DNA of 64,000 bases from Terriglobia bacterium (GTDB taxonomy: Bacteria; Acidobacteriota; Terriglobia; 2-12-FULL-54-10): NCBI GenBank assembly GCA_963666975.2, contig CAXVYR010000004.1, positions 1,696,001-1,760,000 on the forward strand, written 5' to 3'. Position numbers and translations under genes: made by a program. Below, piece after piece: positions 7,442-55,999 of the stretch (positions are counted from its first letter, which is position 1; the number at the start of each line of letters is the position of its first letter). Under the pieces are notes generated by a model. That model was not told the origin of the DNA and made no database searches. It was given only the letters and a program-made list of their open reading frames with translations.

Positions 7442-8356
7442 TTACCGCCGAAAATCAAACCAAAAGTCTACCGCGACACTCGGGGCGAGATAGTCGTCGG
7501 GCAGCGGCGGCATGGGACTGGAATCGTAAATGGCGCGCAGCGCCGACCGGTCCAGCGAGGCCAGCCCGCTGGAGGCGGTCAGTTGCGTGTTTACGATCCG
7601 GCCATCCCGCAATATCTGGAACGTGACATAGACGCGAGGGGCTACCCGGATGTTGGGGTTCACGGTTCCCTTCAACCAGTTGCTGCTGATCCGGTTGCGA
7701 ATTGCCGTGACGTACCATCCGTAGCGTTCGGCGAAATTCCCGGCGCTTTCGGTGAAACCGAAGCCGCCGGAGCCCGCGTCGGTTTGAAAGATGCCGTAGG
7801 GTCCCTGAGCAGGCCCGCTCTCTCCCAAGGGAATCTCATTGCCAGGCGGAGTTTCCGGCGGCGGTTTGCGCAGCCGGGCTACCTGGCGCCGGCGCGGCGG
7901 CTGACGCTCCGGCTCCTTCTGGGCCGCTGCTTGTTCGGAAGCCTCCGGCTTTGCAATTTTCGGCTCTGCTTTTTTAGGAACCACCTTGGCGTTGCGAGCC
8001 GGCAGATCAACGGCTTCTTCGGCTTTTTCCGGCGTGTCAGGCTTTTTAGTTGCCGCCGGCTGGGGGGGTTCCGGGGAGTGCAAGGCCGGGTCTTCGGTTG
8101 CGACATTGTTTTTGGTCGCAATCCGGGGCGCGGGCAAAGGAACGCTGGCGGCGCTGACCAGTTGCACCGTGGCTGCCCCTCCGGTAGAACTCACCCCCCA
8201 CACCAACCCATTATGTGCAGTGAGGACTCCGATTAAGCTGGCAGCCACCAGGAAGACATGACCCGCTACCGAGATCAACAGCGGCCTGCGCAGCAGCCCT
8301 CTGCCGCTAGCCGTTTCCCGCCGTTCCGCTGGATTGCTTCCCCGCACTTTCGACAC
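7442..8356 (-). CDS. TolA/TonB family energy transducer
   Basis: Single TM helix, Pro/Lys/Glu-rich linker, TonB_C-like domain (SSGLASLDRSALRAI). Confidence 0.85.
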   Translation of the reverse strand: MSKVRGSNPAERRETASGRGLLRRPLLISVAGHVFLVAASLIGVLTAHNGLVWGVSSTGGAATVQLVSAASVPLPAPRIATKNNVATEDPALHSPEPPQPAATKKPDTPEKAEEAVDLPARNAKVVPKKAEPKIAKPEASEQAAAQKEPERQPPRRRQVARLRKPPPETPPGNEIPLGESGPAQGPYGIFQTDAGSGGFGFTESAGNFAERYGWYVTAIRNRISSNWLKGTVNPNIRVAPRVYVTFQILRDGRIVNTQLTASSGLASLDRSALRAIYDSSPMPPLPDDYLAPSVAVDFWFDFRR

Positions 8357-8407: not shown

Positions 8408-8827
8408 CTATCTGCGCCGCCCCTGCGGTTCTGTCACCATGCTGATTTGCTCGATCCCGGCCAGACGCAGCTCGTCCACCACCATGGCGACCGTGCCGAA
8501 GGGCACGTCCTTGTCGGCCCGCAGAAACACCGACTGCCGTTTGTCCGAGCCCGCTTTTTCGCGCAGCAGGGGACCCAGCCGGTTAATGTTTACCGGGTCG
8601 CTGCCCAAGAACAACCGCTGCCCCCGGTCGATGCTGACCACCAATCTCTCTTGGGAAATTTCCCGGACGGTTCGCGTCTGCGGCACATCCAGTTCAATGC
8701 CGGATTGCAGGATGGGCGCCGTCAGCATGAAGATCACCAGCAGCACCAGCAGCACGTCCACGAAGGGCGTCACGTTGATGTCGGAAAGCGATGTTTGCGT
8801 TCTTCCTTGAGGGTTGGTAAATGCCAT
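8408..8827 (-). CDS. tolR: TolR/ExbD
   Basis: INVTPFVDVLLVLLVIFMLTAP motif. Confidence 0.9.
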   Translation of the reverse strand: MAFTNPQGRTQTSLSDINVTPFVDVLLVLLVIFMLTAPILQSGIELDVPQTRTVREISQERLVVSIDRGQRLFLGSDPVNINRLGPLLREKAGSDKRQSVFLRADKDVPFGTVAMVVDELRLAGIEQISMVTEPQGRRR

Positions 8828-9023
8828 GATAAACGCCTCGTCCTAATATGGTTCCGATGCCAAGGCCAACCGCAGGGTTGCCGGAAGTTGTTCCCTATGT
8901 CAAACTTGGTTCAACCCGGATTCAATCTTGGTTCACCTTGTCATTATCTTGCAGCGGGTCTTGCATCCGTCTTGCCGTGAGCCTGGCATTTTGCCTGGCT
9001 TTGAGTTCCAGTTCTTGGTTGCT

Positions 9024-9713
9024 TCAGGTTTGGTTTCGTTCAGCCGCGTTCTGAAATTCCAGGGAAAAATTATCCATCCGTGTTCCCGCTTCCTTGATCT
9101 GGCTCAGGAAGTGGTTATAGCCGATCACGGCCGGGACCGCCACGAATAGCCCCGCCGCAGTAGCCACCAGCGCCTCCGCAATCCCCGGCCCGACGGCGCG
9201 CAGGCTGGCTGCTCCGGCGGCTCCCAGGCCGAGAAAAGCGTCCATAATGCCCCAAACAGTTCCGAATAATCCAATGAACGGCGTCACGGCGCCGGCCGTG
9301 GCCAGCCAGTTCAGGTTTTCTTCCAGTTCGCTCAGTTGCTGGCTGGAGGCGATTTGCAGGGTCCGCCCCAGGGCGGCCGGGTTCGTGACGGGCCCGCCGG
9401 GATTGCCCACCTGATGGACTACCTCCTTGTATCCTGCCTCAAAAATGACTTTCAGCGGCTGGGAAGGAAAGTTGTCCGCGAGCACATGCATGTCGGAAAG
9501 TTTGAGGGTCCGGCGAAAGGCTTTCGCAAACTGGTCGCTTTGCACCTGCAAAATCTTAAATTGCTTCCATTTGGAATAGATGATCGCCCAGGAAAAGATG
9601 GAAAAACAAAGCAATACCACCAGGACAATTCTCGCGACAACGCCCGTCTGAGCAATCAGGCTGGGAATGTCGGTCTGTATTAAAGAAAGGAGTAAAACGG
9701 CAAATACGTTCAA
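9024..9713 (-). CDS. tolQ: TolQ/ExbB proton channel
   Basis: TPFIGLFGTVWGIM and GIAEALVATAAGLFVAVPA motifs. Confidence 0.92.
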   Translation of the reverse strand: MNVFAVLLLSLIQTDIPSLIAQTGVVARIVLVVLLCFSIFSWAIIYSKWKQFKILQVQSDQFAKAFRRTLKLSDMHVLADNFPSQPLKVIFEAGYKEVVHQVGNPGGPVTNPAALGRTLQIASSQQLSELEENLNWLATAGAVTPFIGLFGTVWGIMDAFLGLGAAGAASLRAVGPGIAEALVATAAGLFVAVPAVIGYNHFLSQIKEAGTRMDNFSLEFQNAAERNQT

Positions 9714-9992
9714 TCGACAGCGCCTCGGCTTACATTCCTTAGTGGTCGCACCAATACGGGTCCAATCACGGTTCCAGCAATGGTTTCCTGAGTCTCAAAT
9801 TATCACAGGGCCAGGCAGCCGTCAATTTGTATCGTGTTGCGGCGCTGTAGGTTGCGTGCCGAAAGAGGCAATGGGGAAGGAAGGGGCCGACGCCATTATT
9901 CCATCACGCCCAATTGGATATTCCAATTTGCCGTGGGTTTGTCAATTTAAAAAAAAGCCCCCTCTGGCAGGAGTTCCGAACGAAAAAATGTT

Positions 9993-25714: not shown

Positions 25715-25872
25715 AATCGCCGGATTTTCCCAATACGTCTCGCTTTCATGCAGCTTTTCACCGCCGGGGCCCGGTCACTGTAGCTGGGAAAAAGCTCCCG
25801 CACTCTTTGGAAGACACTTTTCGGAAAAGGTTGAAAAGGCTCGCCTACAAGTACCGTGCTTTCTTTATCTGG

Positions 25873-27321
25873 GAAGGTGTCCCAAACTCAGTTGCAGGTT
25901 GGGACGGCGGGTTGAGTTCATATTACGCCACTTCCTCCTTGTGAGAGGAAGCAGCGTTTGGACTTCGGCCGAGAATCGATGCCAAAGCCCAGAGATCGTG
26001 ATAACCCATGATCTTCCGGAAATTCTTCTCGGTCAGCAGAAACGCTCCTGCCACCCAGCGCAACGTCATCTCGCCGTCGCGCCAGCGGCAAACATTGCCA
26101 GTCTTTTTCCGCACGCCCGACTGCGGGCTCTCGATGAGGTTCGTGGTTGCCAGGCAGCGGTGGAGGCTGGGAGGAACGTCGGCTCGATTGATCGTAAAGG
26201 TCTCCTCCAACCCTTCGCGCAAGCTGGCGGCTGCTGCCGGATGATCGCACTCGATCATCCCAGCGAGCTTTTTTATGCGCACGATGCCTTCCTCGGCTTG
26301 GGGCAATCGCCAGGCGGCGCGCATCAGCGACCGCACCTGATTCGCCAGCATTTTGTCGCCCTTTGGTAACCGCTCAGCCACGTTGCGCAGCTTATGAGTA
26401 CGGCAACGCTGCACCAGCTGATTGCTGCCGAATACTTCCTCGATCCCCGCGCGGAGCGCTTTGGCGCCGTCGATCACAAACAGATAGCGCTGATCCGTGC
26501 GCAAACCTTGCTGGCGCAGGCGGGTGAGAAGGTCTTTCACCGCAGCGGCGTTTTCGGTCGCGCCCAGTTGAATCCCCAGCACATGCTTGCGGCCCTCGAT
26601 GTCCACGCCCACGGCGCTGATGACGTGGTGGGAGCCGAACCGCATTCCGTCCAGGTAAATCACCAGAATCTCGACCTCCTCCCAGCGCCGCGCCAACAGT
26701 TCTTCCAGCCGCCGCGCTCCTTGCTCGGCCGCTTCCCGGCTCACCTGAGACTTCGACACCCCAGCGCTGTTGGCCATCTCCGGGATCACCTCGCGGTAGT
26801 TCCGCGTCGAAACCCCTTTCAACAGTGCCACGAACATCTCCTCGCCCGTCTTCTCGCTTTTCCGCAGTGCTTCGTAGGCCGGCACCGCTTCTTCCCCTCC
26901 GCCCTTCCGGCGCAGCCGGGGCCGCTCCACCCGCAGCTGGCGATCGGCCAGTTTCACCCTCCCCAATTGCCGGCCATGCCAGCGCACCTCTCCGCTCGCC
27001 TTCCCGGGACTCTTTGGCCCCGCGATTTGCTCTGCGCTCATGCTCAGAATCGTTTCAATCAAACCTCGCCCGGCCCGATCAATCACCTCATCCACCGCCA
27101 GACGCGCCTCCGTGATCAGATCCACCACCGGCAACAGCATCTGTCCGTTGGTTTGGCAAAACTTCTGGATGGTTTCTTCGGCTCCCTTGGAACCCAGTTC
27201 CAAAACGTGATATTTTCCCTTCATTCGGCGGTTCTCCTTCTATAGGATTTAGGCTTGGCCCGATTCTATTCGATTCGGGCCGAACCGCCGTTCAACCTTC
27301 AACTATGTATGGGACACCCTC
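25873..27321 (-). mobile_element. IS256-family element, copy 1 (transposase 25923-27224)
   Basis: ~29-bp imperfect TIRs; 8-bp TSD TTATCTGG; YLDG, IDG, QRCRTH, TTNLIES. Confidence 0.95.
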
Positions 27322-27364
27322 TTATCTGGTTGAGGCAAGGGACGTCTGGGCGTAATCTTGCGGC

Positions 27365-28180
27365 ATGGCTAAGATCACATGGGAGCAGGTTTGGAAATGG
27401 ATCGAGCGTGTCCAGACCTTCAAGTGGCTTGTTGGGCTTGTTGTGGCTGGCGGTATGATGACCTTTATTACCACAGTCCTGCAAGTCCTGGGATATGTCT
27501 CGGGGCCTTGGTTAATTGTGCTCGCTTGCGGAATATTCGCTCTGGTTTTGAGCGGACCAGTTTTCGCAGTAGAAAGAGGCTGGATTGCCCCAAAGCGGCA
27601 GAACAAAACGACTATGGCTACCCAGAAAGAATCAACGGCCACATTCTTGATAACCGATGTCCGCATAGCGAAGAGACATCTCTATCGCTTAAATCGAGAG
27701 CAACAGAGTAAATACACGAACCATGTTCCACAACGTCATCAAATAGAGGATGAGATGCTCGGTCTTGTCGCAATATTTACAAACACTCCACCAGAGAGAA
27801 CGGCTGGCGAATACATCTCGGATGTACATGCGCAGTTATCCTTTCAAAAAGAAGGCGAGATAGAGCCAATACGGATTGACTATGGATGCTGGGTAGATGC
27901 GGATATTAACGAAGTGTCTTTCGCTCGTGGGGGCGCAAATGCCTTGATTCTAGCTGTTCAATTACGAGGGGGGGAACTTAGTTGGTGTGCAGTTGAGGAT
28001 GGAAGGGATCAATATAAAAAATGGCACGCCCCTGCATATTGGGAACTCTCAACACCGGCAGAGCTCTCCGTAACGGTCCGGTTGATCTCAAGCAATGGCA
28101 AATTAAATTCGGAGTATCTCTTTTCGGTTGATACTACGGACGAAGGCTCGATTGAGTATAAGGGAGAGAGCGGTGCCTAG
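27365..28180 (+). CDS. hypothetical membrane-anchored protein (transposon passenger)
   Basis: 271-aa AT-richer ORF with two N-terminal TM helices, inside the TIRs. Confidence 0.7.
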   Translation: MAKITWEQVWKWIERVQTFKWLVGLVVAGGMMTFITTVLQVLGYVSGPWLIVLACGIFALVLSGPVFAVERGWIAPKRQNKTTMATQKESTATFLITDVRIAKRHLYRLNREQQSKYTNHVPQRHQIEDEMLGLVAIFTNTPPERTAGEYISDVHAQLSFQKEGEIEPIRIDYGCWVDADINEVSFARGGANALILAVQLRGGELSWCAVEDGRDQYKKWHAPAYWELSTPAELSVTVRLISSNGKLNSEYLFSVDTTDEGSIEYKGESGA

Positions 28181-28226
28181 CTCGACTAGCTGCCAAGGAG
28201 ATTGTTCAATCAAGAGGTTGTTACCT

Positions 28227-29483
28227 CTACGCTGCAACCGCCTCGCCCCTTTGGTGCGGTTGCAACTTTTGGGGCGGTCTTCCCCCATAGTTGGCCTTCC
28301 TCACGAGCAAGTCGGTCTTGACCATGTTCCAGATTGCCCTCTTGGTCCGGTTGCGATAGTGGATTTTGGCCCGCTTCCGATAGTAACGGTTCGCCCGCTC
28401 GACATGGTTGGAGGTCCGGGGGCAGTCGATGTAGTCCAGGAAGGTGATGGCCTTGGCAAACTGCTCGGTTCGGAGCGTTCGGACCACTCTCTTGAGCGGG
28501 TCGCTGAACGAGTACAACTCATTCTCGATGATCTCCCGACGTTTGCCCCAGGCCTCCAGGTGGGTTTGGTTTCGCGTGAAGAGGCCGAACACCTTCAGGA
28601 CAAGGTCTCGGATCAGGCGGAGGCGGGCGTAGCGGGCGCTCAGTTCAGCAATGGCCGCCCGCTGGGTCTCACTCAGCTTCTCCTCTCGGCTCAAAAGGAC
28701 GTAACGGAGGCCCCACAGCTTGCGGGAATCCTCTTTAGTGCCCACCTTTCGAGCAAGGACGCCCCGAAGGTCGTTGATGGCGGTCAGGACGTTCTTGGTA
28801 ATGGCGCGGGTGTAGTGGAAGATGCAGAGTTGCTGTCTGATCCCCGGCCAAACTTCTTTTGGGACGTTTTGGTAGATAGGTGCACCGTCGGTCACAATGA
28901 CACTTGGATGAATCCCCAAGTCTTTAAGGTGTGTCAGGAATTGGCGAAGCTCTTCTTCATTGGCAGTCCGGCACAATCGAACCGAGAGGGTCTTGTCGTT
29001 CAGAGGGTCCGTGGCAACCAGCACTGCGTAATGATCGTAAAGCTCGTCCACCACCAATACGCCGGAGAAGCCTTCCGCCGCCCACCGCTCATAATCTCGC
29101 TCCATGTCTATCGCATCGGCGGAATCATGGAACCAGCCATACGCTGTCGAGAGTGCGGGGCGGACATGGAAGTCGCGCTCAAGCCGCTTCCGCAAGCCAG
29201 CAAACGTGGTCTTATCCTCCGCCACCGCACTGCGGGCCTTCTCAATGGCCCTTTGGCTGTAGTGTTTCCCCTTTTGGGCCATTGGCGGTTGGAAGCGGAA
29301 AAACTTTTTGCAGGCTTGACAGCGATACACCCCTACCTTAACATTCAATATGGTAGCGCACTCAAGATCAAGGTCTTTGATACGCCTTTCCCGGACCGAG
29401 TGCCTCTTGCACAGCGCCTTACAATTTGGGCACTCGGAACACGGGGGCGCAAACGAATTCGCTGTGGGGTTTCCTTCTGCCAA
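28227..29483 (-). CDS. DDE transposase with N-terminal zinc finger (Mutator/IS256/ISL3-like)
   Basis: CPNC...CQAC; VVDE, VTDG, QLCIFH, TSNHVERANR. Confidence 0.88.
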   Translation of the reverse strand: MAEGNPTANSFAPPCSECPNCKALCKRHSVRERRIKDLDLECATILNVKVGVYRCQACKKFFRFQPPMAQKGKHYSQRAIEKARSAVAEDKTTFAGLRKRLERDFHVRPALSTAYGWFHDSADAIDMERDYERWAAEGFSGVLVVDELYDHYAVLVATDPLNDKTLSVRLCRTANEEELRQFLTHLKDLGIHPSVIVTDGAPIYQNVPKEVWPGIRQQLCIFHYTRAITKNVLTAINDLRGVLARKVGTKEDSRKLWGLRYVLLSREEKLSETQRAAIAELSARYARLRLIRDLVLKVFGLFTRNQTHLEAWGKRREIIENELYSFSDPLKRVVRTLRTEQFAKAITFLDYIDCPRTSNHVERANRYYRKRAKIHYRNRTKRAIWNMVKTDLLVRKANYGGRPPQKLQPHQRGEAVAA

Positions 29484-29551
29484 GGGGGTTTCTCCGTGTC
29501 GATGCCCTGGAGCCTGTTAGTCGCAGACTCCAGGGGTTACTTGCTAGAAGC

Positions 29552-29660
29552 TGGCGGGCCGGGAGGGGGTCGAACCCTCGACCTTCCGCTTAGCAGGCGG
29601 ACGCTCTTGATCCTGGTTTCCCTAGAAGGTCCCGGATCGTTTCCGCTGAGCTACCGGCCC
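29552..29660 (-). tRNA. atypical tRNA-like gene, anticodon GCU, 109 nt with extra D-loop hairpin (copy 1)
   Basis: Acceptor GGGCCGG/CCGGCCC, D stem GCTC/GAGC, anticodon arm TCCGC-CTGCTAA-GCGGA, variable AGGTC, T arm GAGGG-TTCGACC-CCCTC, ends GCCA. Confidence 0.8.
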
Positions 29661-29768
29661 GTTATCTATCAATCTTTCAATCCATACCTCCTAAACCAAG
29701 CGCACATCCGATTAGCGCCTTCAGTCCCTGCTTGTTCCTCTGTGCCGTTGAGCTACGGGGCCACAAAT

Positions 29769-30296
29769 TCATCTACTGTTCCTCTTTGGCGGTTTAGAAG
29801 TCTCAATAAAATTTTCTGCGTCTGGCGTCCAAGAAAAATCATCCTCATCCACTTCCTTTACTATTTCCTTGTAGAAGACGTTGAGGCCTTCCCTCCTTAT
29901 CTCTATCTCATCGTTATCTTTCATGCGATTCAAAATCGTATAAATGGAAGACATTGGATTTTCGTAGGGCGACAAGTCCAACCCCCTCTTGGCAAGCTCG
30001 TCCCTAACGTCCTTGGGAGACAGCCATGCCGAGGCGAGCCCCAAAGCTCCGTGTTCCCCCGAAGTCAAAAACACGTGGCGTATCGCATCAGTAAAGCCGA
30101 GAGTGCTCAAATCATCTATGGAAGCGGCCAATCCGCAAAGGGGGAGCATTTTATTGATAACGGCTTTAATGTTTGCAATTTGTTTTTCAATTTCAACTCT
30201 CTTGGCGTCAAGCTCATCGCGCTCATTGTCCAGGCCGCAAAGGCGCACCCTGAGAGTTTCCAACATTTTTGCGGGATTGTACTCTTGATCTGCCAT
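29769..30296 (-). CDS. coiled-coil plus winged-helix-like hypothetical protein
   Basis: N-terminal heptads; GFTDAIRHV...SPKDVRDEL...SIYTILNRM; identical in copy 2. Confidence 0.7.
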   Translation of the reverse strand: MADQEYNPAKMLETLRVRLCGLDNERDELDAKRVEIEKQIANIKAVINKMLPLCGLAASIDDLSTLGFTDAIRHVFLTSGEHGALGLASAWLSPKDVRDELAKRGLDLSPYENPMSSIYTILNRMKDNDEIEIRREGLNVFYKEIVKEVDEDDFSWTPDAENFIETSKPPKRNSR

Positions 30297-30310
30297 GAGG
30301 TGAACATAAC

Positions 30311-30508
30311 ATGTCTGTAGACAAAGTCAAGGGGGAAATAAATGCGGACCTAGACACGGATGTGGGTCCATGGGATTCATTGATTGCACAGGCCAAAGAG
30401 CAGCGACGCCAAGCTAAGGCAAGCATATTAAAATTATCAAAATCCATTGTCTTTTTTGAAAGAAAGAAAAGGGCGGGTGAGCCGTGGCCTGGGTCAACGC
30501 ACAATTAG
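30311..30508 (+). CDS. small basic helical hypothetical protein
   Basis: 65-aa ORF starting divergently 14 bp from the 175-aa ORF; identical in copy 2. Confidence 0.5.
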   Translation: MSVDKVKGEINADLDTDVGPWDSLIAQAKEQRRQAKASILKLSKSIVFFERKKRAGEPWPGSTHN

Positions 30509-30742
30509 CGGACTACCAGAGAGGACAGAAGTTCTATGCTTGTTTATCATCAACCTTTTCCGAAAAGTCTCAATTTTGGACCTCCTTTCACAGCGAAACA
30601 CACAACCGTGACCTTCGTGGCCCCCCCCCACTTTTGCACGGACGATTTTTCTTACAGCATGGTCATTGCTGCTTCCTGCCTGCCGACGCCGGTATAGACG
30701 CTTTCAGGTTTTTTCGTCAAGCGGGCGTTCTGTGATTTGCTT

Positions 30743-31707: not shown

Positions 31708-33858
31708 CTAGGTCTTTCGGGCCAGTTTCTTTCTCCCAAACCCCGCTAGTCCTGCCAGCCCGGTGCCGAGGAGGAGCAGGGTGGCGGGTTCGGGGATGGG
31801 GTCGGGGGCAGGGGTGTAATTGTATTGAAGAATTGCAGCTCCCGAGACTGAAAAATTCGCAAATCCGCTGGTGATGCTGTGCGCCAAAAGCATTGGGTTT
31901 AGTGGGGACGCTGGTTCCACGAAATCCGATACAAGAGCGCTAATACTGGTGGGCGGCACGTTGGCGCCACTAAAGCCAGGGACGACAAAGCCAAACAGGT
32001 CGGTGGTTTCGTTGAAAGTGAATGTGTAAATGATTGGCCGCGCAAAGCTAACAGGAATTATTGACCCAAAAGCGCCTAACCCGGCACCGGGGAAAATGAA
32101 TAGGGCGGGAGAGTCGAAATCAAAGATATTGACCACCAAGCCCTGTGAATGACTGTGTAATGATAAGAGTACCGGGAATAAGAGACACACCTGACATGAC
32201 TCCGTTGATGGTCACATTCACTGATAGGAGCGTTCCGAGGTCGGGATCAAAGGGCTGTATGCCGAAGGGAACCGCGCCAACAGTCCCGCTGAATGAACTG
32301 CGAGGGTGTCCCATACATAGTTGAAGGTTGAACGGCGGTTCGGCCCGAATCGAATAGAATCGGGCCAAGCCTAAATCCTATAGAAGGAGAACCGCCGAAT
32401 GAAGGGAAAATATCACGTTTTGGAACTGGGTTCCAAGGGAGCCGAAGAAACCATCCAGAAGTTTTGCCAAACCAACGGACAGATGCTGTTGCCGGTGGTG
32501 GATCTGATCACGGAGGCGCGTCTGGCGGTGGATGAGGTGATTGATCGGGCCGGGCGAGGTTTGATTGAAACGATTCTGAGCATGAGCGCAGAGCAAATCG
32601 CGGGGCCAAAGAGTCCCGGGAAGGCGAGCGGAGAGGTGCGCTGGCATGGCCGGCAATTGGGGAGGGTGAAACTGGCCGATCGCCAGCTGCGGGTGGAGCG
32701 GCCCCGGCTGCGCCGGAAGGGCGGAGGGGAAGAAGCGGTGCCGGCCTACGAAGCACTGCGGAAAAGCGAGAAGACGGGCGAGGAGATGTTCGAGGCACTG
32801 TTGAAAGGGGTTTCGACGCGGAACTACCGCGAGGTGATCCCGGAGATGGCCAACAGCGCTGGGGTGTCGAAGTCTCAGGTGAGCCGGGAAGCGGCCGAGC
32901 AAGGAGCGCGGCGGCTGGAAGAACTGTTGGCGCGGCGCTGGGAGGAGGTCGAGATTCTGGTGATTTACCTGGACGGAATGCGGTTCGGCTCCCACCACGT
33001 CATCAGCGCCGTGGGCGTGGACATCGAGGGCCGCAAGCATGTGCTGGGGATTCAACTGGGCGCGACCGAAAACGCCGCTGCGGTGAAAGACCTTCTCACC
33101 CGCCTGCGCCAGCAAGGTTTGCGCACGGATCAGCGCTATCTGTTTGTGATCGACGGCGCCAAAGCGCTCCGCGCGGGGATCGAGGAAGTATTCGGCAGCA
33201 ATCAGCTGGTGCAGCGTTGCCGTACTCATAAGCTGCGCAACGTGGCTGAGCGGTTACCAAAGGGCGACAAAATGCTGGCGAATCAGGTGCGGTCGCTGAT
33301 GCGCGCCGCCTGGCGATTGCCCCAAGCCGAGGAAGGCATCGTGCGCATAAAAAAGCTCGCTGGGATGATCGAGTGCGATCATCCGGCAGCAGCCGCCAGC
33401 TTGCGCGAAGGGTTGGAGGAGACCTTTACGATCAATCGAGCCGACGTTCCTCCCAGCCTCCACCGCTGCCTGGCAACCACGAACCTCATCGAGAGCCCGC
33501 AGTCGGGCGTGCGGAAAAAGACTGGCAATGTTTGCCGCTGGCGCGACGGCGAGATGACGTTGCGCTGGGTGGCAGGAGCGTTTCTGCTGACCGAGAAGAA
33601 TTTCCGGAAGATCATGGGTTATCACGATCTCTGGGCTTTGGCATCGATTCTCGGCCGAAGTCCAAACGCTGCTTCCTCTCACAAGGAGAAAGTGGCGTAA
33701 TATGAACTCAACCCGCCGTCCCAACCTGCAACTGAGTTTGGGACACCTTCTGAACTGCTGACGATCTGCGTCAGTATGGGGTCGGCCCGTAGTTCACGCG
33801 CTCCGACCAGGACAAATAGTGCCATCAAAAGAGCCAAGCCACTCCGCTTCAGTTGCAT
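31708..33858 (-). pseudogene. PEP-CTERM surface protein split by IS256 and frameshifted
   Basis: Signal peptide from ATG 33858 joins in frame to SSFSGTVG...FDPDLGTLLSV once the IS is removed; frameshift near 32123; C-terminal IPEPATLLLLGTGLAGLAGFGRKK. Confidence 0.82.
32302..33750 (+). mobile_element. IS256-family element, copy 2 (transposase 32399-33700)
   Basis: Same 1449-bp element; 8-bp TSD TGAACTGC; two amino-acid differences from copy 1. Confidence 0.95.
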
Positions 33859-34465: not shown

Positions 34466-34538
34466 AGAGGCACCGACACAAATCAACGTAGTGCTGAACT
34501 GGTTTGAAGAGCTGAAGCAGCGGGTGCCCGCGCAGTAA
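34466..34538 (+). pseudogene. C-terminal remnant of a PD40-repeat or Ser/Thr kinase type protein
   Basis: APTQINVVLNWFEELKQRVP is a characteristic C-terminus of such proteins. Confidence 0.5.
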
Positions 34539-34859
34539 TCTGAACCGCGACCGTCACGGAACACACGGGCCACTAATTTGACGCCTTTCTCATAGAAGTG
34601 CCCTTGGCCTTCGTAAGATTGCTGTAAGAAACCGTCGCTTCCACGATCACCCGCGAGTAACGGCGCAGTGTAGAACGAAGTCGCTCACTCAGCGGGTGCC
34701 CGCGCAGTAATCTGAACCGCGACCGTCACGGAACACACGGGCCACTAATTTGACGCCTTTCTCATAGAAGTGCCCTTGGCCTTCGTAAGATTGCTGTAAG
34801 AAACCGTCGCTTCCACGATCACCCGCGAGTAACGGCGCAGTGTAGAACGAAGTCGCTCA
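34518..34859. repeat. exact 170-bp tandem duplication
   Basis: 34518-34687 is repeated at 34690-34859. Confidence 0.9.
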
Positions 34860-38167: not shown

Positions 38168-40366
38168 GTCCGGGGGCAGTCGATGTAGTCCAGGAAGGTG
38201 ATGGCCTTGGCAAACCACTCTCTTGAGCGGGTCGCTGAACGATGGCCTTGGCAAACTGCTCGGTTCGGAGCGTTCGGACCACTCTCTTGAGCGGGTCGCT
38301 GAACGAGTACAACTCATTCTCGATGATCTCCCGACGTTTGCCCCAGGCCTCCAGGTGGGTTTGGTTTCGCGTGAAGAGGCCGAACACCTTCAGGACAAGG
38401 TCTCGGATCAGGCGGAGGCGGGCGTAGCGGGCGCTCAGTTCAGCAATGGCCGCCCGCTGGGTCTCACTCAGCTTCTCCTCTCGGCTCAAAAGGACGTAAC
38501 GGAGGCCCCACAGCTTGCGGGAATCCTCTTTAGTGCCCACCTTTCGAGCAAGGACGCCCCGAAGGTCGTTGATGGCGGTCAGGACGTTCTTGGTAATGGC
38601 GCGGGTGTAGTGGAAGATGCAGAGTTGCTGTCTGATCCCCGGCCAAACTTCTTTTGGGACGTTTTGGTAGATAGGTGCACCGTCGGTCACAATGACACTT
38701 GGATGAATCCCCAAGTCTTTAAGGTGTGTCAGGAATTGGCGAAGCTCTTCTTCATTGGCAGTCCGGCACAATCGAACCGAGAGGGTCTTGTCGTTCAGAG
38801 GGTCCGTGGCAACCAGCACTGCGTAATGATCGTAAAGCTCGTCCACCACCAATACGCCGGAGAAGCCTTCCGCCGCCCACCGCTCATAATCTCGCTCCAT
38901 GTCTATCGCATCGGCGGAATCATGGAACCAGCCATACGCTGTCGAGAGTGCGGGGCGGACATGGAAGTCGCGCTCAAGCCGCTTCCGCAAGCCAGCAAAC
39001 GTGGTCTTATCCTCCACCACCGCACTGCGGGCCTTCTCAATGGCCCTTTGGCTGTAGTGTTTCCCCTTTTGGGCCATTGGCGGTTGGAAGCGGAAAAACT
39101 TTTTGCAGGCTTGACAGCGATACACCCCTACCTTAACATTCAATATGGTAGCGCACTCAAGATCAAGGTCTTTGATACGCCTTTCCCGGACCGAGTGCCT
39201 CTTGCACAGCGCCTTACAATTTGGGCACTCGGAACACGGGGGCGCAAACGAATTCGCTGTGGGGTTTCCTTCTGCCAAGGGGGTTTCTCCGTGTCGATGC
39301 CCTGGAGCCTGTTAGTCGCAGACTCCAGGGGTTACTTGCTAGAAGCTGGCGGGCCGGGAGGGGGTCGAACCCTCGACCTTCCGCTTAGCAGGCGGACGCT
39401 CTTGATCCTGGTTTCCCTAGAAGGTCCCGGATCGTTTCCGCTGAGCTACCGGCCCGTTATCTATCAATCTTTCAATCCATACCTCCTAAACCAAGCGCAC
39501 ATCCGATTAGCGCCTTCAGTCCCTGCTTGTTCCTCTGTGCCGTTGAGCTACGGGGCCACAAATTCATCTACTGTTCCTCTTTGGCGGTTTAGAAGTCTCA
39601 ATAAAATTTTCTGCGTCTGGCGTCCAAGAAAAATCATCCTCATCCACTTCCTTTACTATTTCCTTGTAGAAGACGTTGAGGCCTTCCCTCCTTATCTCTA
39701 TCTCATCGTTATCTTTCATGCGATTCAAAATCGTATAAATGGAAGACATTGGATTTTCGTAGGGCGACAAGTCCAACCCCCTCTTGGCAAGCTCGTCCCT
39801 AACGTCCTTGGGAGACAGCCATGCCGAGGCGAGCCCCAAAGCTCCGTGTTCCCCCGAAGTCAAAAACACGTGGCGTATCGCATCAGTAAAGCCGAGAGTG
39901 CTCAAATCATCTATGGAAGCGGCCAATCCGCAAAGGGGGAGCATTTTATTGATAACGGCTTTAATGTTTGCAATTTGTTTTTCAATTTCAACTCTCTTGG
40001 CGTCAAGCTCATCGCGCTCATTGTCCAGGCCGCAAAGGCGCACCCTGAGAGTTTCCAACATTTTTGCGGGATTGTACTCTTGATCTGCCATGAGGTGAAC
40101 ATAACATGTCTGTAGACAAAGTCAAGGGGGAAATAAATGCGGACCTAGACACGGATGTGGGTCCATGGGATTCATTGATTGCACAGGCCAAAGAGCAGCG
40201 ACGCCAAGCTAAGGCAAGCATATTAAAATTATCAAAATCCATTGTCTTTTTTGAAAGAAAGAAAAGGGCGGGTGAGCCGTGGCCTGGGTCAACGCACAAT
40301 TAGCGGACTACCAGAGAGGACAGAAGTTCTATGCTTGTTTATCATCAACCTTTTCCGAAAAGTCTC
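38168..40366. mobile_element. tRNA-carrying transposon, copy 2 (left part lost at the IS3 junction)
   Basis: Near-identical to 28414-30571; transposase 3' end scrambled at ~38215-38240 and truncated; also carries the 175-aa (39564-40091) and 65-aa (40106-40303) ORFs. Confidence 0.88.
39347..39455 (-). tRNA. atypical tRNA-like gene, anticodon GCU (copy 2)
   Basis: Identical to 29552-29660. Confidence 0.8.
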
Positions 40367-40502
40367 CAAAGGAGCGCCTCCTGGGGGCTCTTTCCCCGCC
40401 TGTATACACTCTGTTGAAAGCACTTCCTGGAGTAGTGAACCGCCGGGTTATCCAGGTTATCATGACAAGGGGACGAATACGAAGGCAGATCGGGGGTAAT
40501 GG

Positions 40503-55922: not shown

Positions 55923-55999
55923 GCGCCTGTAGCTCAGCTGGATAGAGCGTTGGTCTCCGGAACCAAAGGTCGGAGGTTCGAATCCTCTCAGGCGTACCA
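55923..55999 (+). tRNA. tRNA-Arg(CCG)
   Basis: Canonical cloverleaf, anticodon loop CT-CCG-GA, GGTTCGAATCC, CCA end. Confidence 0.97.

Follow-up and report, generated by a model that had tools for sequence, protein, structure and literature searches.

The 64,000-nucleotide stretch analysed here (the window) comes from a Terriglobia bacterium of the Acidobacteriota (GenBank assembly GCA_963666975.2, contig CAXVYR010000004.1, positions 1,696,001 to 1,760,000 of the forward strand), and positions are counted from its first letter unless another locus is named. At 25813-30571 it contains a transposon that carries a gene in the shape of a tRNA in the leader of its transposase gene. Comparison with relatives very probably places this 3.3-kb element in a rare, ISL3-related family of transposons, whose terminal inverted repeat (TIR) consensus is GAGACTNTTCNNAAAARGTTGA and whose target duplication is 8 bp long. 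The same comparison strongly supports the tRNA-like gene as selected cargo, neither a target site nor a recent copy of a host tRNA. Read along the transposase strand, the order is a promoter-like site, a winged-helix gene, one or more tRNA-shaped RNA genes, a hairpin, a ribosome-binding site and the transposase gene. Judged from sequence, a cassette of this kind recurs in two unrelated DDE transposase families, often together with one protein family, and the tRNA-like/winged-helix cassette is probably functional. Our best explanation as a whole, to which we give a probability of about 0.4, is a cargo cassette whose tRNA-shaped RNA is processed out of the transcript. As for the mechanism, we tentatively favour a co-transcribed leader RNA that would be cut by RNase P and thereby set transposase expression.

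The tRNA-like gene is 109 nt long (29552-29660, minus strand). It folds into a cloverleaf with the anticodon GCU, which is composed of a 7-bp acceptor stem, a D-stem, an anticodon loop CTGCTAA, a short variable loop of 5 nt, a TTCGA T-arm and an encoded G-CCA end, with acceptor/T-stem lengths of 7/5. Alignment with the genes of two related loci, L129 and L010, locates an extra hairpin of about 32-37 nt in the D-loop. The initial annotation placed the gene 68 nt upstream of the TTG start of the transposase on the same strand, and the CCA (29552) indeed ends at that distance. The gene aligns column for column with the L129 and L010 genes, which are called by ARAGORN, and a covariance model of our own built from these three sequences (R1) gives the window gene 87.2 bits (E 4.6e-20). 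With the Rfam tRNA model RF00005 the gene scores 27.1 bits (gathering score 29), in a partial match (29613-29563, minus strand) covering the 3' two thirds only. ARAGORN makes no call at this position; its sole call in the window is a tRNA-Arg(CCG) at 55923. The host tRNA closest to the core is tRNA-Arg(UCU), with 77% identity. A recent capture of a host tRNA was rejected, as none of the 48 predicted host tRNAs exceeds this value. The host tRNA genes encode CCA in 47/48 cases, and the lone call lacking it, a 96-nt 'tRNA-Ser(AGA)' made by ARAGORN (G000:C3:934710-934805), is probably false. Beside the full gene lies a remnant of a second one, comprising the 5' acceptor/D-arm part (29737-29762, minus strand) and beginning 6 nt after the stop of the 175-aa open reading frame (ORF) that encodes the winged-helix protein. 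By manual count 22 of its 26 bases match the 5' part of the L129 gene; neither ARAGORN nor R1 detects it.

The ends of the element are well defined. A search for inverted repeats places the 22-nt arms, which are 95% complementary, at 25813-25834 and 30550-30571 and bears out the TIR pair of the initial annotation. The left TIR (the GACAC end) has one mismatch to the family consensus, and its end point is shared by the copies A, C and D described below. The right TIR (the GAGAC end) is given by the same search, by the family TIR and by the copy ends, and recurs at 40345-40366. The initial annotation counted two copies of the element. The second copy is real, and the genome has four pieces, which represent three insertions. 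Copy A is the element at 25813-30571. Copy B (38168-40366, minus strand) is the right-hand 2.2 kb with a 3'-truncated transposase, a tRNA-like gene (39348-39455, minus strand; 87.2 bits with R1), the 175-aa ORF (39564-40091, minus strand, by alignment to copy A) and the right TIR. It was described as almost identical to copy A, from which it differs by one substitution and a 41-nt internal duplication, and it stops at the same TIR end. Copy C is complete and inverted, lies about 405 kb away and contains two other IS256 insertions (G000:C4:2126982-2133215). Copy D is the left part of the element, cut by IS256 copies.

Pairing of the flanks explains why no clear target duplication had been seen. 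The flanks to the right of A and to the left of C share AATTTTGG exactly, those to the left of A and to the right of C share CTTTGGAA with a one-base offset, and those to the right of B and to the left of D share CAAAGGAG exactly (window 40367-40374; G000:C4:1466182-1466189). The 8-bp duplications are thus recovered from the pairs A/C and B/D, and appeared to be lacking because flanks have been exchanged between copies. On this pairing there are three insertions, each with an 8-bp duplication. The exchange at window 25805-25812 and 30572-30579 implies an inversion of about 405 kb, which would have arisen by recombination between the inverted copies A and C, and a rearrangement is likewise read as having separated copy B from copy D. 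B and D appear to be a single insertion, later split or partly duplicated. The two pieces are separated by 265 kb and have about 545 bp of the element in common.

The transposase (28227-29483, minus strand, 418 aa, TTG start) has a putative N-terminal zinc ribbon and a DDE domain with a CxxH motif. Its residues 154-341 match Pfam DDE_Tnp_ISL3 (PF01610; E 4e-10, 40.3 bits against a cut-off of 23). The NCBIfam ISL3 equivalog NF033550 is the top-scoring model of an insertion sequence (IS), yet its 72.7 bits stay under the cut-off of 180; the runners-up are IS256 (43.1 bits, cut-off 150) and IS66 (37 bits). Zn_ribbon_ISL3 (16.7 bits, cut-off 25.5) and DUF6431 (24.1 bits, cut-off 26.6) both match the putative zinc ribbon at residues 18-91. 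We use the label ISL3-related, and not that of a catalogued ISL3 member, because NF033550 scores so far under its cut-off. The earlier label Mutator/IS256-like is not upheld: Transposase_mut gives 20.5 bits (cut-off 21), MULE gives 26.9 bits (cut-off 27.6), and the NCBIfam IS256 score is the one quoted above. The CxxH motif pointed out in the initial annotation corresponds to C220/H223 and is invariant in 15/15 aligned relatives. TIRs and an 8-bp target duplication are traits of the ISL3 family, and passenger-carrying members such as ISPpu12 are known. The window element resembles this family in its DDE_Tnp_ISL3 domain, putative N-terminal zinc ribbon, short TIRs, 8-bp duplication and room for passenger genes. 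It differs in scoring far below the NCBI equivalog cut-off, in being rare, and in having tRNA-like and winged-helix genes in the transposase leader. Among 5.8 billion proteins the transposase has 42 relatives, the best with 59% identity, and is itself present only as a 308-aa protein (67% coverage). At E 1e-10, homologues are absent from 60 related genomes and from 72,556 plasmid records.

To see how often the tRNA-like gene accompanies such transposases, 80 genome loci and 75 metagenome loci were fetched by scans with an alignment of 15 transposases. ARAGORN finds a same-strand tRNA just upstream of the transposase in L010, L090, L091/L092, L097/L098, L102 (two genes) and L129, and relaxed ARAGORN settings together with R1 add L099 and a second gene in L010. 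Counting was limited to the 95 of 154 loci with a transposase match in which the N-terminus and at least 300 nt upstream are present. With default ARAGORN, a same-strand tRNA within 500 nt upstream occurs in 7/12 loci at a transposase identity of at least 35% and in 2/83 below 35%. The family TIR is found in 20 related loci, and the duplications are perfect 8-bp repeats in L099, L097, L010, L093 and L094. Ten family members retain at least the upstream TIR (near-identical pairs counted once). Six of them, the window element, L090, L091, L097, L099 and L010, have a same-strand tRNA-like gene between this TIR and the transposase. Co-occurrence in homologous elements, proposed as a check in the initial annotation, is hence found at transposase identities of 38-63%. 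In a quick tree the bearers are scattered over several clades, and simple-IS forms cluster apart.

These boundaries also decide whether the tRNA might be an insertion target just outside the true end of the element, a reading that is almost certainly wrong. Its one support is the distant relative L086 (28% identity), where a tRNA lies 17 nt outside the element's own inverted repeat. In this genome, every copy has the tRNA-like gene some 900 bp inward of the TIR. Corresponding genes are inside the bounds set by TIR plus duplication in L097, L099 and L010, and inside the TIRs of L090 and of an IS5-like element of genome G074. The recovered duplications are short, varied 8-mers and not tRNA sequence. 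For the ISL3-related family the target reading is refuted by the TIR and duplication boundaries, and the earlier statement that the tRNA moves with the element stands.

The second host of the cassette was found through the 175-aa protein. At 13/46 loci outside the host (7/20 and 6/26), a same-strand tRNA-like gene lies within 250 nt downstream of a homologue of this protein, and in 7 of those 13 an IS5-like transposase comes next. Pfam DDE_Tnp_1 (PF01609, 72-96 bits) and a SWIM finger confirm 6/7; the seventh locus, L238, is broken and known by tblastn only. The NCBI IS5 model NF033579 gives these transposases 110-131 bits against a cut-off of 140. In G074 the IS5-like element is present in three 2.53-kb copies with 11-bp TIRs and three different 9-bp duplications, and the tRNA-like gene is inside. 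A search with the G074 transposase alone yields nine loci with the N-terminus, 4 of which have an upstream tRNA-like gene (L246, L248 and L252 by ARAGORN, L247 by Rfam). Several of these RNAs pass the Rfam tRNA threshold (L191 60.9, L247 60.2, L243 58.6, L192 58.0, L202 52.5 and L248 44.8 bits), and L090 in the ISL3-related family matches the tRNA-Sec model with 51.6 bits against 47. The long-arm versions have a tRNA-Ser-like body with a long variable arm and a G before the CCA, which is encoded in 7/8; their anticodons are UUA, UAA, UAU, GCA, UGC, UAG, CCA and CAA. ARAGORN drawings and a stem scan give an acceptor/T-stem of 7/5 in L191, L192, L193, L197, L199, L201 and L202. L192 also contains a second IS5-like transposase (8559-9770, plus strand) preceded by a 76-nt gene of tRNA-Ala(CGC) type (8112-8187, plus strand), which is an ARAGORN call and does not reach the Rfam gathering score.

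The shape of these RNAs is conserved by paired substitutions. In an alignment of eight element tRNA-likes fitted to our own model, 94.8% of positions expected to pair do so and 17/21 pairs change on both sides. None of 500 shuffles reaches this, and slid registers of the same alignment come nowhere near the observed pairing. Eight long-arm tRNA-likes aligned by plain MAFFT give 96.2% paired and 18/20 pairs with changes on both sides, again with 0/500 shuffles. This covariation shows the cloverleaf to be under selection.

The winged-helix protein (29769-30296, minus strand, 175 aa) is the second component. The initial call of a coiled coil with a winged helix-turn-helix is supported by the AlphaFold2 (AF2) model, whose predicted local distance difference test (pLDDT) score is 89, with a helix over residues 8-50 followed by a winged helix. 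The nearest Foldseek matches are the DNA-binding domains of Fur, MecI and BlaI (probability 1.0, best E 7e-3, none reaching E 0.001). A search at E 0.001 yields 394 cluster representatives of the protein, which itself falls into no Pfam family; among 41 relatives, 5 touch Penicillinase_R and 4 touch TrmB, weakly. A two-copy model, in which the helices pair antiparallel, scores 0.52, compared with 0.00 for the best of 3 controls. The mark for a homodimer was reached by 20/30 solved one-chain pairs and by 1/23 solved single chains; the runs of our model share at least 68% of contacts, with a pLDDT of at least 68, and these counts hold only roughly for it, as it was run on our own alignment. These predictions point to a dimeric coiled-coil/winged-helix protein, probably of the DNA-binding kind. 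Among upstream ORFs, those of L090 (1e-26) and L093 (5e-15) match the profile of the protein, and those of L010, L014, L097 and L099 do not. The upstream ORFs of L010 and L014 resemble the family by eye, but were rejected as members because they stay unmatched by the profile even at E 10. The nearest atlas clusters are commonest in Acidobacteriota. Homologues occur in 18/400 genomes of the host's phylum and in 46/400 of its class, the latter count including the unpublished genome G698, which entered no other result.

Two further contexts of this protein were noted. The loci L239 (4628-4713), L240 (4231-4322) and L241 (4684-4771) contain the homologues that come nearest to the protein (E 1e-48 to 1e-51), and after these long-arm tRNA-likes with UGC or GCA anticodons, followed by small ORFs of no family and a PAP2 protein and by no transposase, which means that the cassette can exist without a transposase. 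In L220 (G009) and L228 (G006), both of the same family as the host, the homologue lies about 260 nt from a divergent tRNA-Met gene, possibly at the edge of an element integrated at the tRNA.

The leader has several features that bear on expression. A promoter-like site, TTGACT-16-TATGTT with TG before the -10 (30303-30330, minus strand), lies upstream of the 175-aa ORF. It is a consensus match only, from a scan that gave 5 sites against 1.0 expected, and is the only such site on the transposase strand. Between the tRNA-like gene and the ribosome-binding site, the RNA fold of the leader gives a 12-bp hairpin with a CTAACA-type loop (29505-29535, minus strand). A comparable hairpin follows the tRNA-like gene in L090, L191 and L202 and the ORF in L093. 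In both transposase families it is a perfect hairpin 10-20 nt past the tRNA-like 3' end, often with a (T/C)TAACA loop. The stretch is present in 20 listed runs of 7 studies, sponge metagenomes included. Contigs from three RNA libraries cover 29545-29714, 29469-29632 and 29458-29668 with the D-loop insert ungapped, and two of the three span the tRNA-like 3' end into the transposase start. In the contig X17 the depth is 18.8 over the tRNA-like gene and 2.5-3.2 over the transposase, values that cannot rank expression, and a lack of RNA-contig cover elsewhere in the element is no evidence of silence. We take these contigs as weak evidence for transcription of the region and for retention of the insert. 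The insert was rejected as an intron, as record 3 of X17 has it ungapped; the host is a bacterium and has a tmRNA.

These features can be arranged into a processing mechanism. A single transcript of the cassette would start at the promoter in front of the winged-helix gene. The host's tRNA-maturation enzymes would read the cloverleaf as a pre-tRNA, RNase P cutting at the 5' side and trimming at the 3' side stopping at the encoded CCA. Processing would free a stable small RNA and split the transcript into a regulator mRNA and a transposase mRNA that starts near the protective hairpin, while the winged-helix dimer would act as a DNA-binding regulator of the element. The output of regulator and transposase would thus be uncoupled, and the supply of transposase tied to the state of host tRNA processing. 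The position on the same strand 68 nt upstream of the transposase and the full acceptor stem, T-arm and G-CCA are consistent with such processing. We favour it because the geometry and the CCA fit and no new biochemistry is needed. Co-transcripts of tRNA and mRNA that are cut by RNase P, and tRNA punctuation in general, are known from mitochondrial genomes and the bacterial tufB operon. As in those cases, a cloverleaf lies between two same-strand coding regions and its acceptor stem and CCA suit RNase P. Punctuation uses the working tRNAs of the host, whereas the cloverleaf here is irregular, mobile and redundant with the 48 predicted host genes.

Several observations weigh against the processing mechanism, or against any role of the gene. 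RNase P requires only the acceptor/T-arm part, and yet the anticodon arm retains covarying pairs and the printed loops keep a T at the U33 position, which hints at a role needing the whole tRNA shape. The anticodons vary widely (GCU, ACU, UAA, UAG, UAU, UUA, UGC, GCA, CAA and CCA). The single-sequence fold of the tRNA-like gene is unexceptional (z = -1.23). The RNA evidence consists of assembled contigs, which show neither ends, strand nor level, and DNA may have been present in the libraries. The winged-helix partner is inconstant: different ORFs lie upstream in L097, L099 and L010, and none in L091. L093, L094, L100 and L115 have no tRNA-like gene, and the perfect duplications of L093 and L094 indicate that the gene is not essential for transposition. 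Finally, the tRNA-like gene of copy C is damaged: it has lost 4 nt, its T-stem is changed, and an IS256 has inserted at its 3' end. A passenger that was acquired by chance and is now dead and decaying would also account for this damage, for the 5' remnant beside the full gene, for the pseudogene-like combination of a D-loop insert and a sub-threshold Rfam score, and for the 4/10 members without the gene. That reading is already disfavoured and we regard it as very unlikely, given the compensatory changes in 17/21 and 18/20 pairs, the constant position and strand in elements whose transposases are 38-63% identical, found again in a second family, and a best match to the host tRNAs of no more than 77% identity.

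Two other roles stay alive because the anticodon arm is conserved and the anticodon drifts freely, and for both of them the allo-tRNAs of Mukai et al. (2017; PMC5389517) are relevant. These irregular, mainly acidobacterial tRNAs were noted near transposon genes, include a UAU group inactive in E. coli translation, and occur in tandem polycistrons, among them an extra-loop tRNA with a GCU anticodon; a review (PMC7609411) restates this account. The initial annotation did not recognise the architecture of the element. We found no description of a tRNA-like gene as an IS component in the open literature (subscription journals, ISfinder and the PMC5389517 supplements lay outside its scope), and in this respect the remark holds; it was partly heralded by Mukai et al. 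The element RNAs resemble the allo-tRNAs in being irregular genes with a misfit of anticodon and body, in their UAU types and tandem genes, and in the extra-loop GCU type. The long arm and Sec/Ser-like body are shared by the long-arm relatives and not by the short-loop window copy. Allo-tRNAs are defined by 8/4 or 9/3 acceptor/T-stems, whereas the element tRNA-likes fit 7/5, and the extra loop of the allo-tRNA lies between acceptor stem and D-stem, whereas the window insert is in the D-loop (PMC5389517). The parts of that article covered here describe no TIR-bounded elements, winged-helix partner, leader position or pair of transposase families. The elements described here are probably the genomic home of at least part of the RNAs of Mukai et al.

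The first of the two roles is that of an RNA acting in trans outside translation, as a cofactor or regulator of the winged-helix protein, of the transposase zinc finger or of a host tRNA-binding factor. We consider this unlikely, if less so than the roles discussed after it. Covariation keeps the whole cloverleaf including the anticodon arm, a small dedicated protein accompanies the gene in two unrelated families of transposases, and anticodons would be expected to drift freely if decoding were unimportant. Six allo-tRNA(UAU) variants are inactive in E. coli translation in the available account (Mukai et al., PMC5389517), and tRNA-likes of the UAU type are found in the IS5-like elements L202 and L243. 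The winged helix, however, resembles DNA-binding and not RNA-binding domains, L091, L097, L099 and L010 have another protein partner or none, and the hairpin 8-mers show no complementarity to the TIRs or elsewhere within the element. A guide-like function was rejected on the same scan, as no hairpin 8-mer recurs in the element and none complementary to the TIRs was found. By eye the D-loop insert agrees with the TIR at 10/17 positions, which we put down to chance.

The second role, by analogy with working allo-tRNAs, is that of a suppressor tRNA, missense or nonsense, whose charging would follow its body and not its anticodon and which would alter host translation. This is less likely still. 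The long-arm versions do combine a tRNA-Ser-like body with non-Ser anticodons, four of them pass the Rfam tRNA model (52.5-60.9 bits) and L090 matches the tRNA-Sec model; the window version is closest to the host tRNA-Arg(UCU). The window copy has a 32-37-nt hairpin in its D-loop, at the site where we take ArgRS to read A20. It also has a Ser anticodon on a short-arm body, which SerRS is expected not to charge. Mukai et al. showed that Ser, Ala or Cys is inserted by 8/4 and 9/3 allo-tRNAs at both stop and sense codons in E. coli, where the UAU group is inactive (PMC5389517). Cognate codons are neither avoided nor enriched consistently in the element genes (L193, with the anticodon CCA, has 8 TGG codons for Trp). 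A supply of rare codons was rejected: L090 has 0 CTA, L091 has 1 TTA, and the window transposase uses AGY for 7 of its 17 Ser codons.

The cassette has a further property, which the processing mechanism leaves unexplained and which therefore counts against it. Opposite the transposase, the leader, the tRNA-like gene and the 175-aa ORF runs a stop-free antisense frame of 730 codons (28128-30320, plus strand), so that the 271-aa ORF described below, this frame and a 65-aa ORF follow one another along the plus strand and overlap by short stretches. All eight cassettes that combine the winged-helix and tRNA-like genes with a transposase, two of them ISL3-like (window and L090) and six IS5-like (L191, L192, L193, L197, L202 and L243), are free of antisense stops in the codon-aligned frame over 613-704 of 618-723 codons. 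Such frames lie at L090 1131-3041 (minus strand) and at L191 4547-6487, L192 4524-6572, L193 4432-6399, L197 4261-6357 and L202 4553-6502 (plus strand). In 8/8 the winged-helix gene and the transposase share a frame, and their sense strands use TTA, CTA and TCA rarely or never, the window element having none of these codons. The antisense runs are 69-223 codons long in family members that lack such a cassette. Runs of 686-779 codons occur in the three intact IS5-like loci that bear a tRNA-like gene, and L251 has a run of 469 codons and no detected tRNA-like gene. A folded antisense protein was rejected, as the frame has no Pfam family, no homologue (401-1278 aa) and an AF2 pLDDT of 25.5 (five sequences). 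The antisense product is 25-28% identical among IS5-like elements, compared with 46-52% between the compared transposases. To judge from these sequences, the constraint looks like one on openness rather than on a protein.

An alternative core function is therefore translation of the antisense strand itself: a stop-free antisense RNA would be shielded from termination by ribosomes and silence the transposase, and the tRNA-like and winged-helix genes would be parts of this silencing arrangement. We rate both the core and the supporting parts as improbable. In its favour are the openness of all 8 cassettes in a shared sense frame, the short runs of non-cassette members, the long runs of the three intact IS5-like loci, and the poor conservation of a product with no Pfam family and no confident fold, which suits a constraint on openness. 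Against it, among host-genome frames of at least 550 codons, 27/623 also lack TTA, CTA and TCA, so a single case is not rare; the cassettes are kin within each family; L251 has a long run without a detected tRNA-like gene; and the role in termination is an inference. The openness is notable and not proven selected.

Compared with other structured RNAs of insertion sequences, the tRNA-shaped RNA is of a different kind. Insertion sequences are usually taken as minimal, consisting of transposase and ends, and structured RNAs have recently proved key to some families. In IS110/IS1111 (bridge or seek RNA) and IS200/IS605 (omega RNA), the RNA base-pairs with target and donor DNA and works with DEDD or RuvC-type enzymes. 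The elements here likewise have a structured RNA inside the IS beside the recombinase gene and co-inherited with it. They differ in that the RNA is tRNA-shaped, the enzymes are of the DDE type, the TIRs and duplications are ordinary, and no complementarity to ends or targets was found. A DDE transposase with a small, separately encoded DNA-binding protein is also found in PIF/Harbinger, eukaryotic relatives of IS5 with a second gene for a Myb-like protein; the likeness is one of description, the protein being Myb-like and no RNA gene being present. A broader proposal, which we put forward as doubtful, is that two unrelated DDE families share a control cassette of winged-helix dimer, non-decoding tRNA-shaped RNA and an antisense frame open across cassette and transposase, and that this RNA is a new class encoded by insertion sequences. 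If so, the RNA would be a cofactor, sensor or processing handle governing transposition, and translation-inactive acidobacterial allo-tRNAs would be components of such transposons. Apart from this proposal, the conserved tRNA-shaped gene in the transposase leaders of two unrelated DDE families, usually beside the same small winged-helix protein, probably gives a concrete genomic home to irregular tRNAs that are tied only loosely to mobile elements in the account of Mukai et al. Compact natural test objects are the 2.5-kb ISL3-like element of L010 and the 2.5-kb IS5-like element of G074 with its three copies. For annotation, a warning follows: ARAGORN misses the window gene, the transposase is stored as a 308-aa piece, and the 730-codon antisense frame invites false calls.

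The remaining content of the element is as the initial annotation gave it, its four ORFs (271 aa, transposase, 175 aa and 65 aa) agreeing with the ORF list. The 271-aa passenger ORF (27365-28180, plus strand) has a hydrophobic N-terminus and is 100% conserved in copy C. The divergent 65-aa ORF (30311-30508, plus strand) is retained in copies B and C. Neither has a family in Pfam, NCBIfam or PADLOC, and the passenger ORFs of L090, L097 and L099 have none in PADLOC or Pfam. Members with larger cargo are L094 (291-7144) and L093 (3967-9318), which are 6.9 and 5.4 kb long, have perfect duplications and contain several kb of passenger ORFs; a 322-aa ORF of L094 has a sub-threshold Proteasome match (18.4 bits against 22.4). 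Going by these lengths, the transposon family tolerates large cargo.

Copy A is interrupted by a nested IS256-family element of 1449 bp (25873-27321, minus strand), which encodes a 433-aa transposase (25923-27224) matching Pfam Transposase_mut with 119.6 bits. Its removal leaves 3302 bp, in agreement with the earlier estimate of about 3.3 kb. The nested element has an identical, inverted copy at 32302-33750. Copy C lacks it at the corresponding site, where its 8-bp duplication can be read. Whole-genome BLAST gives dozens of near-identical full-length matches of the 1449-bp element in the 4.2-Mb genome. It has struck the ISL3-related element at least 5 times, once in copy A, twice in copy C and twice in or beside copy D, with 8-bp duplications wherever these are readable. 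Elsewhere in the window, 34511-34854 is a tandem pair of 172-nt units that are 98% identical to each other.

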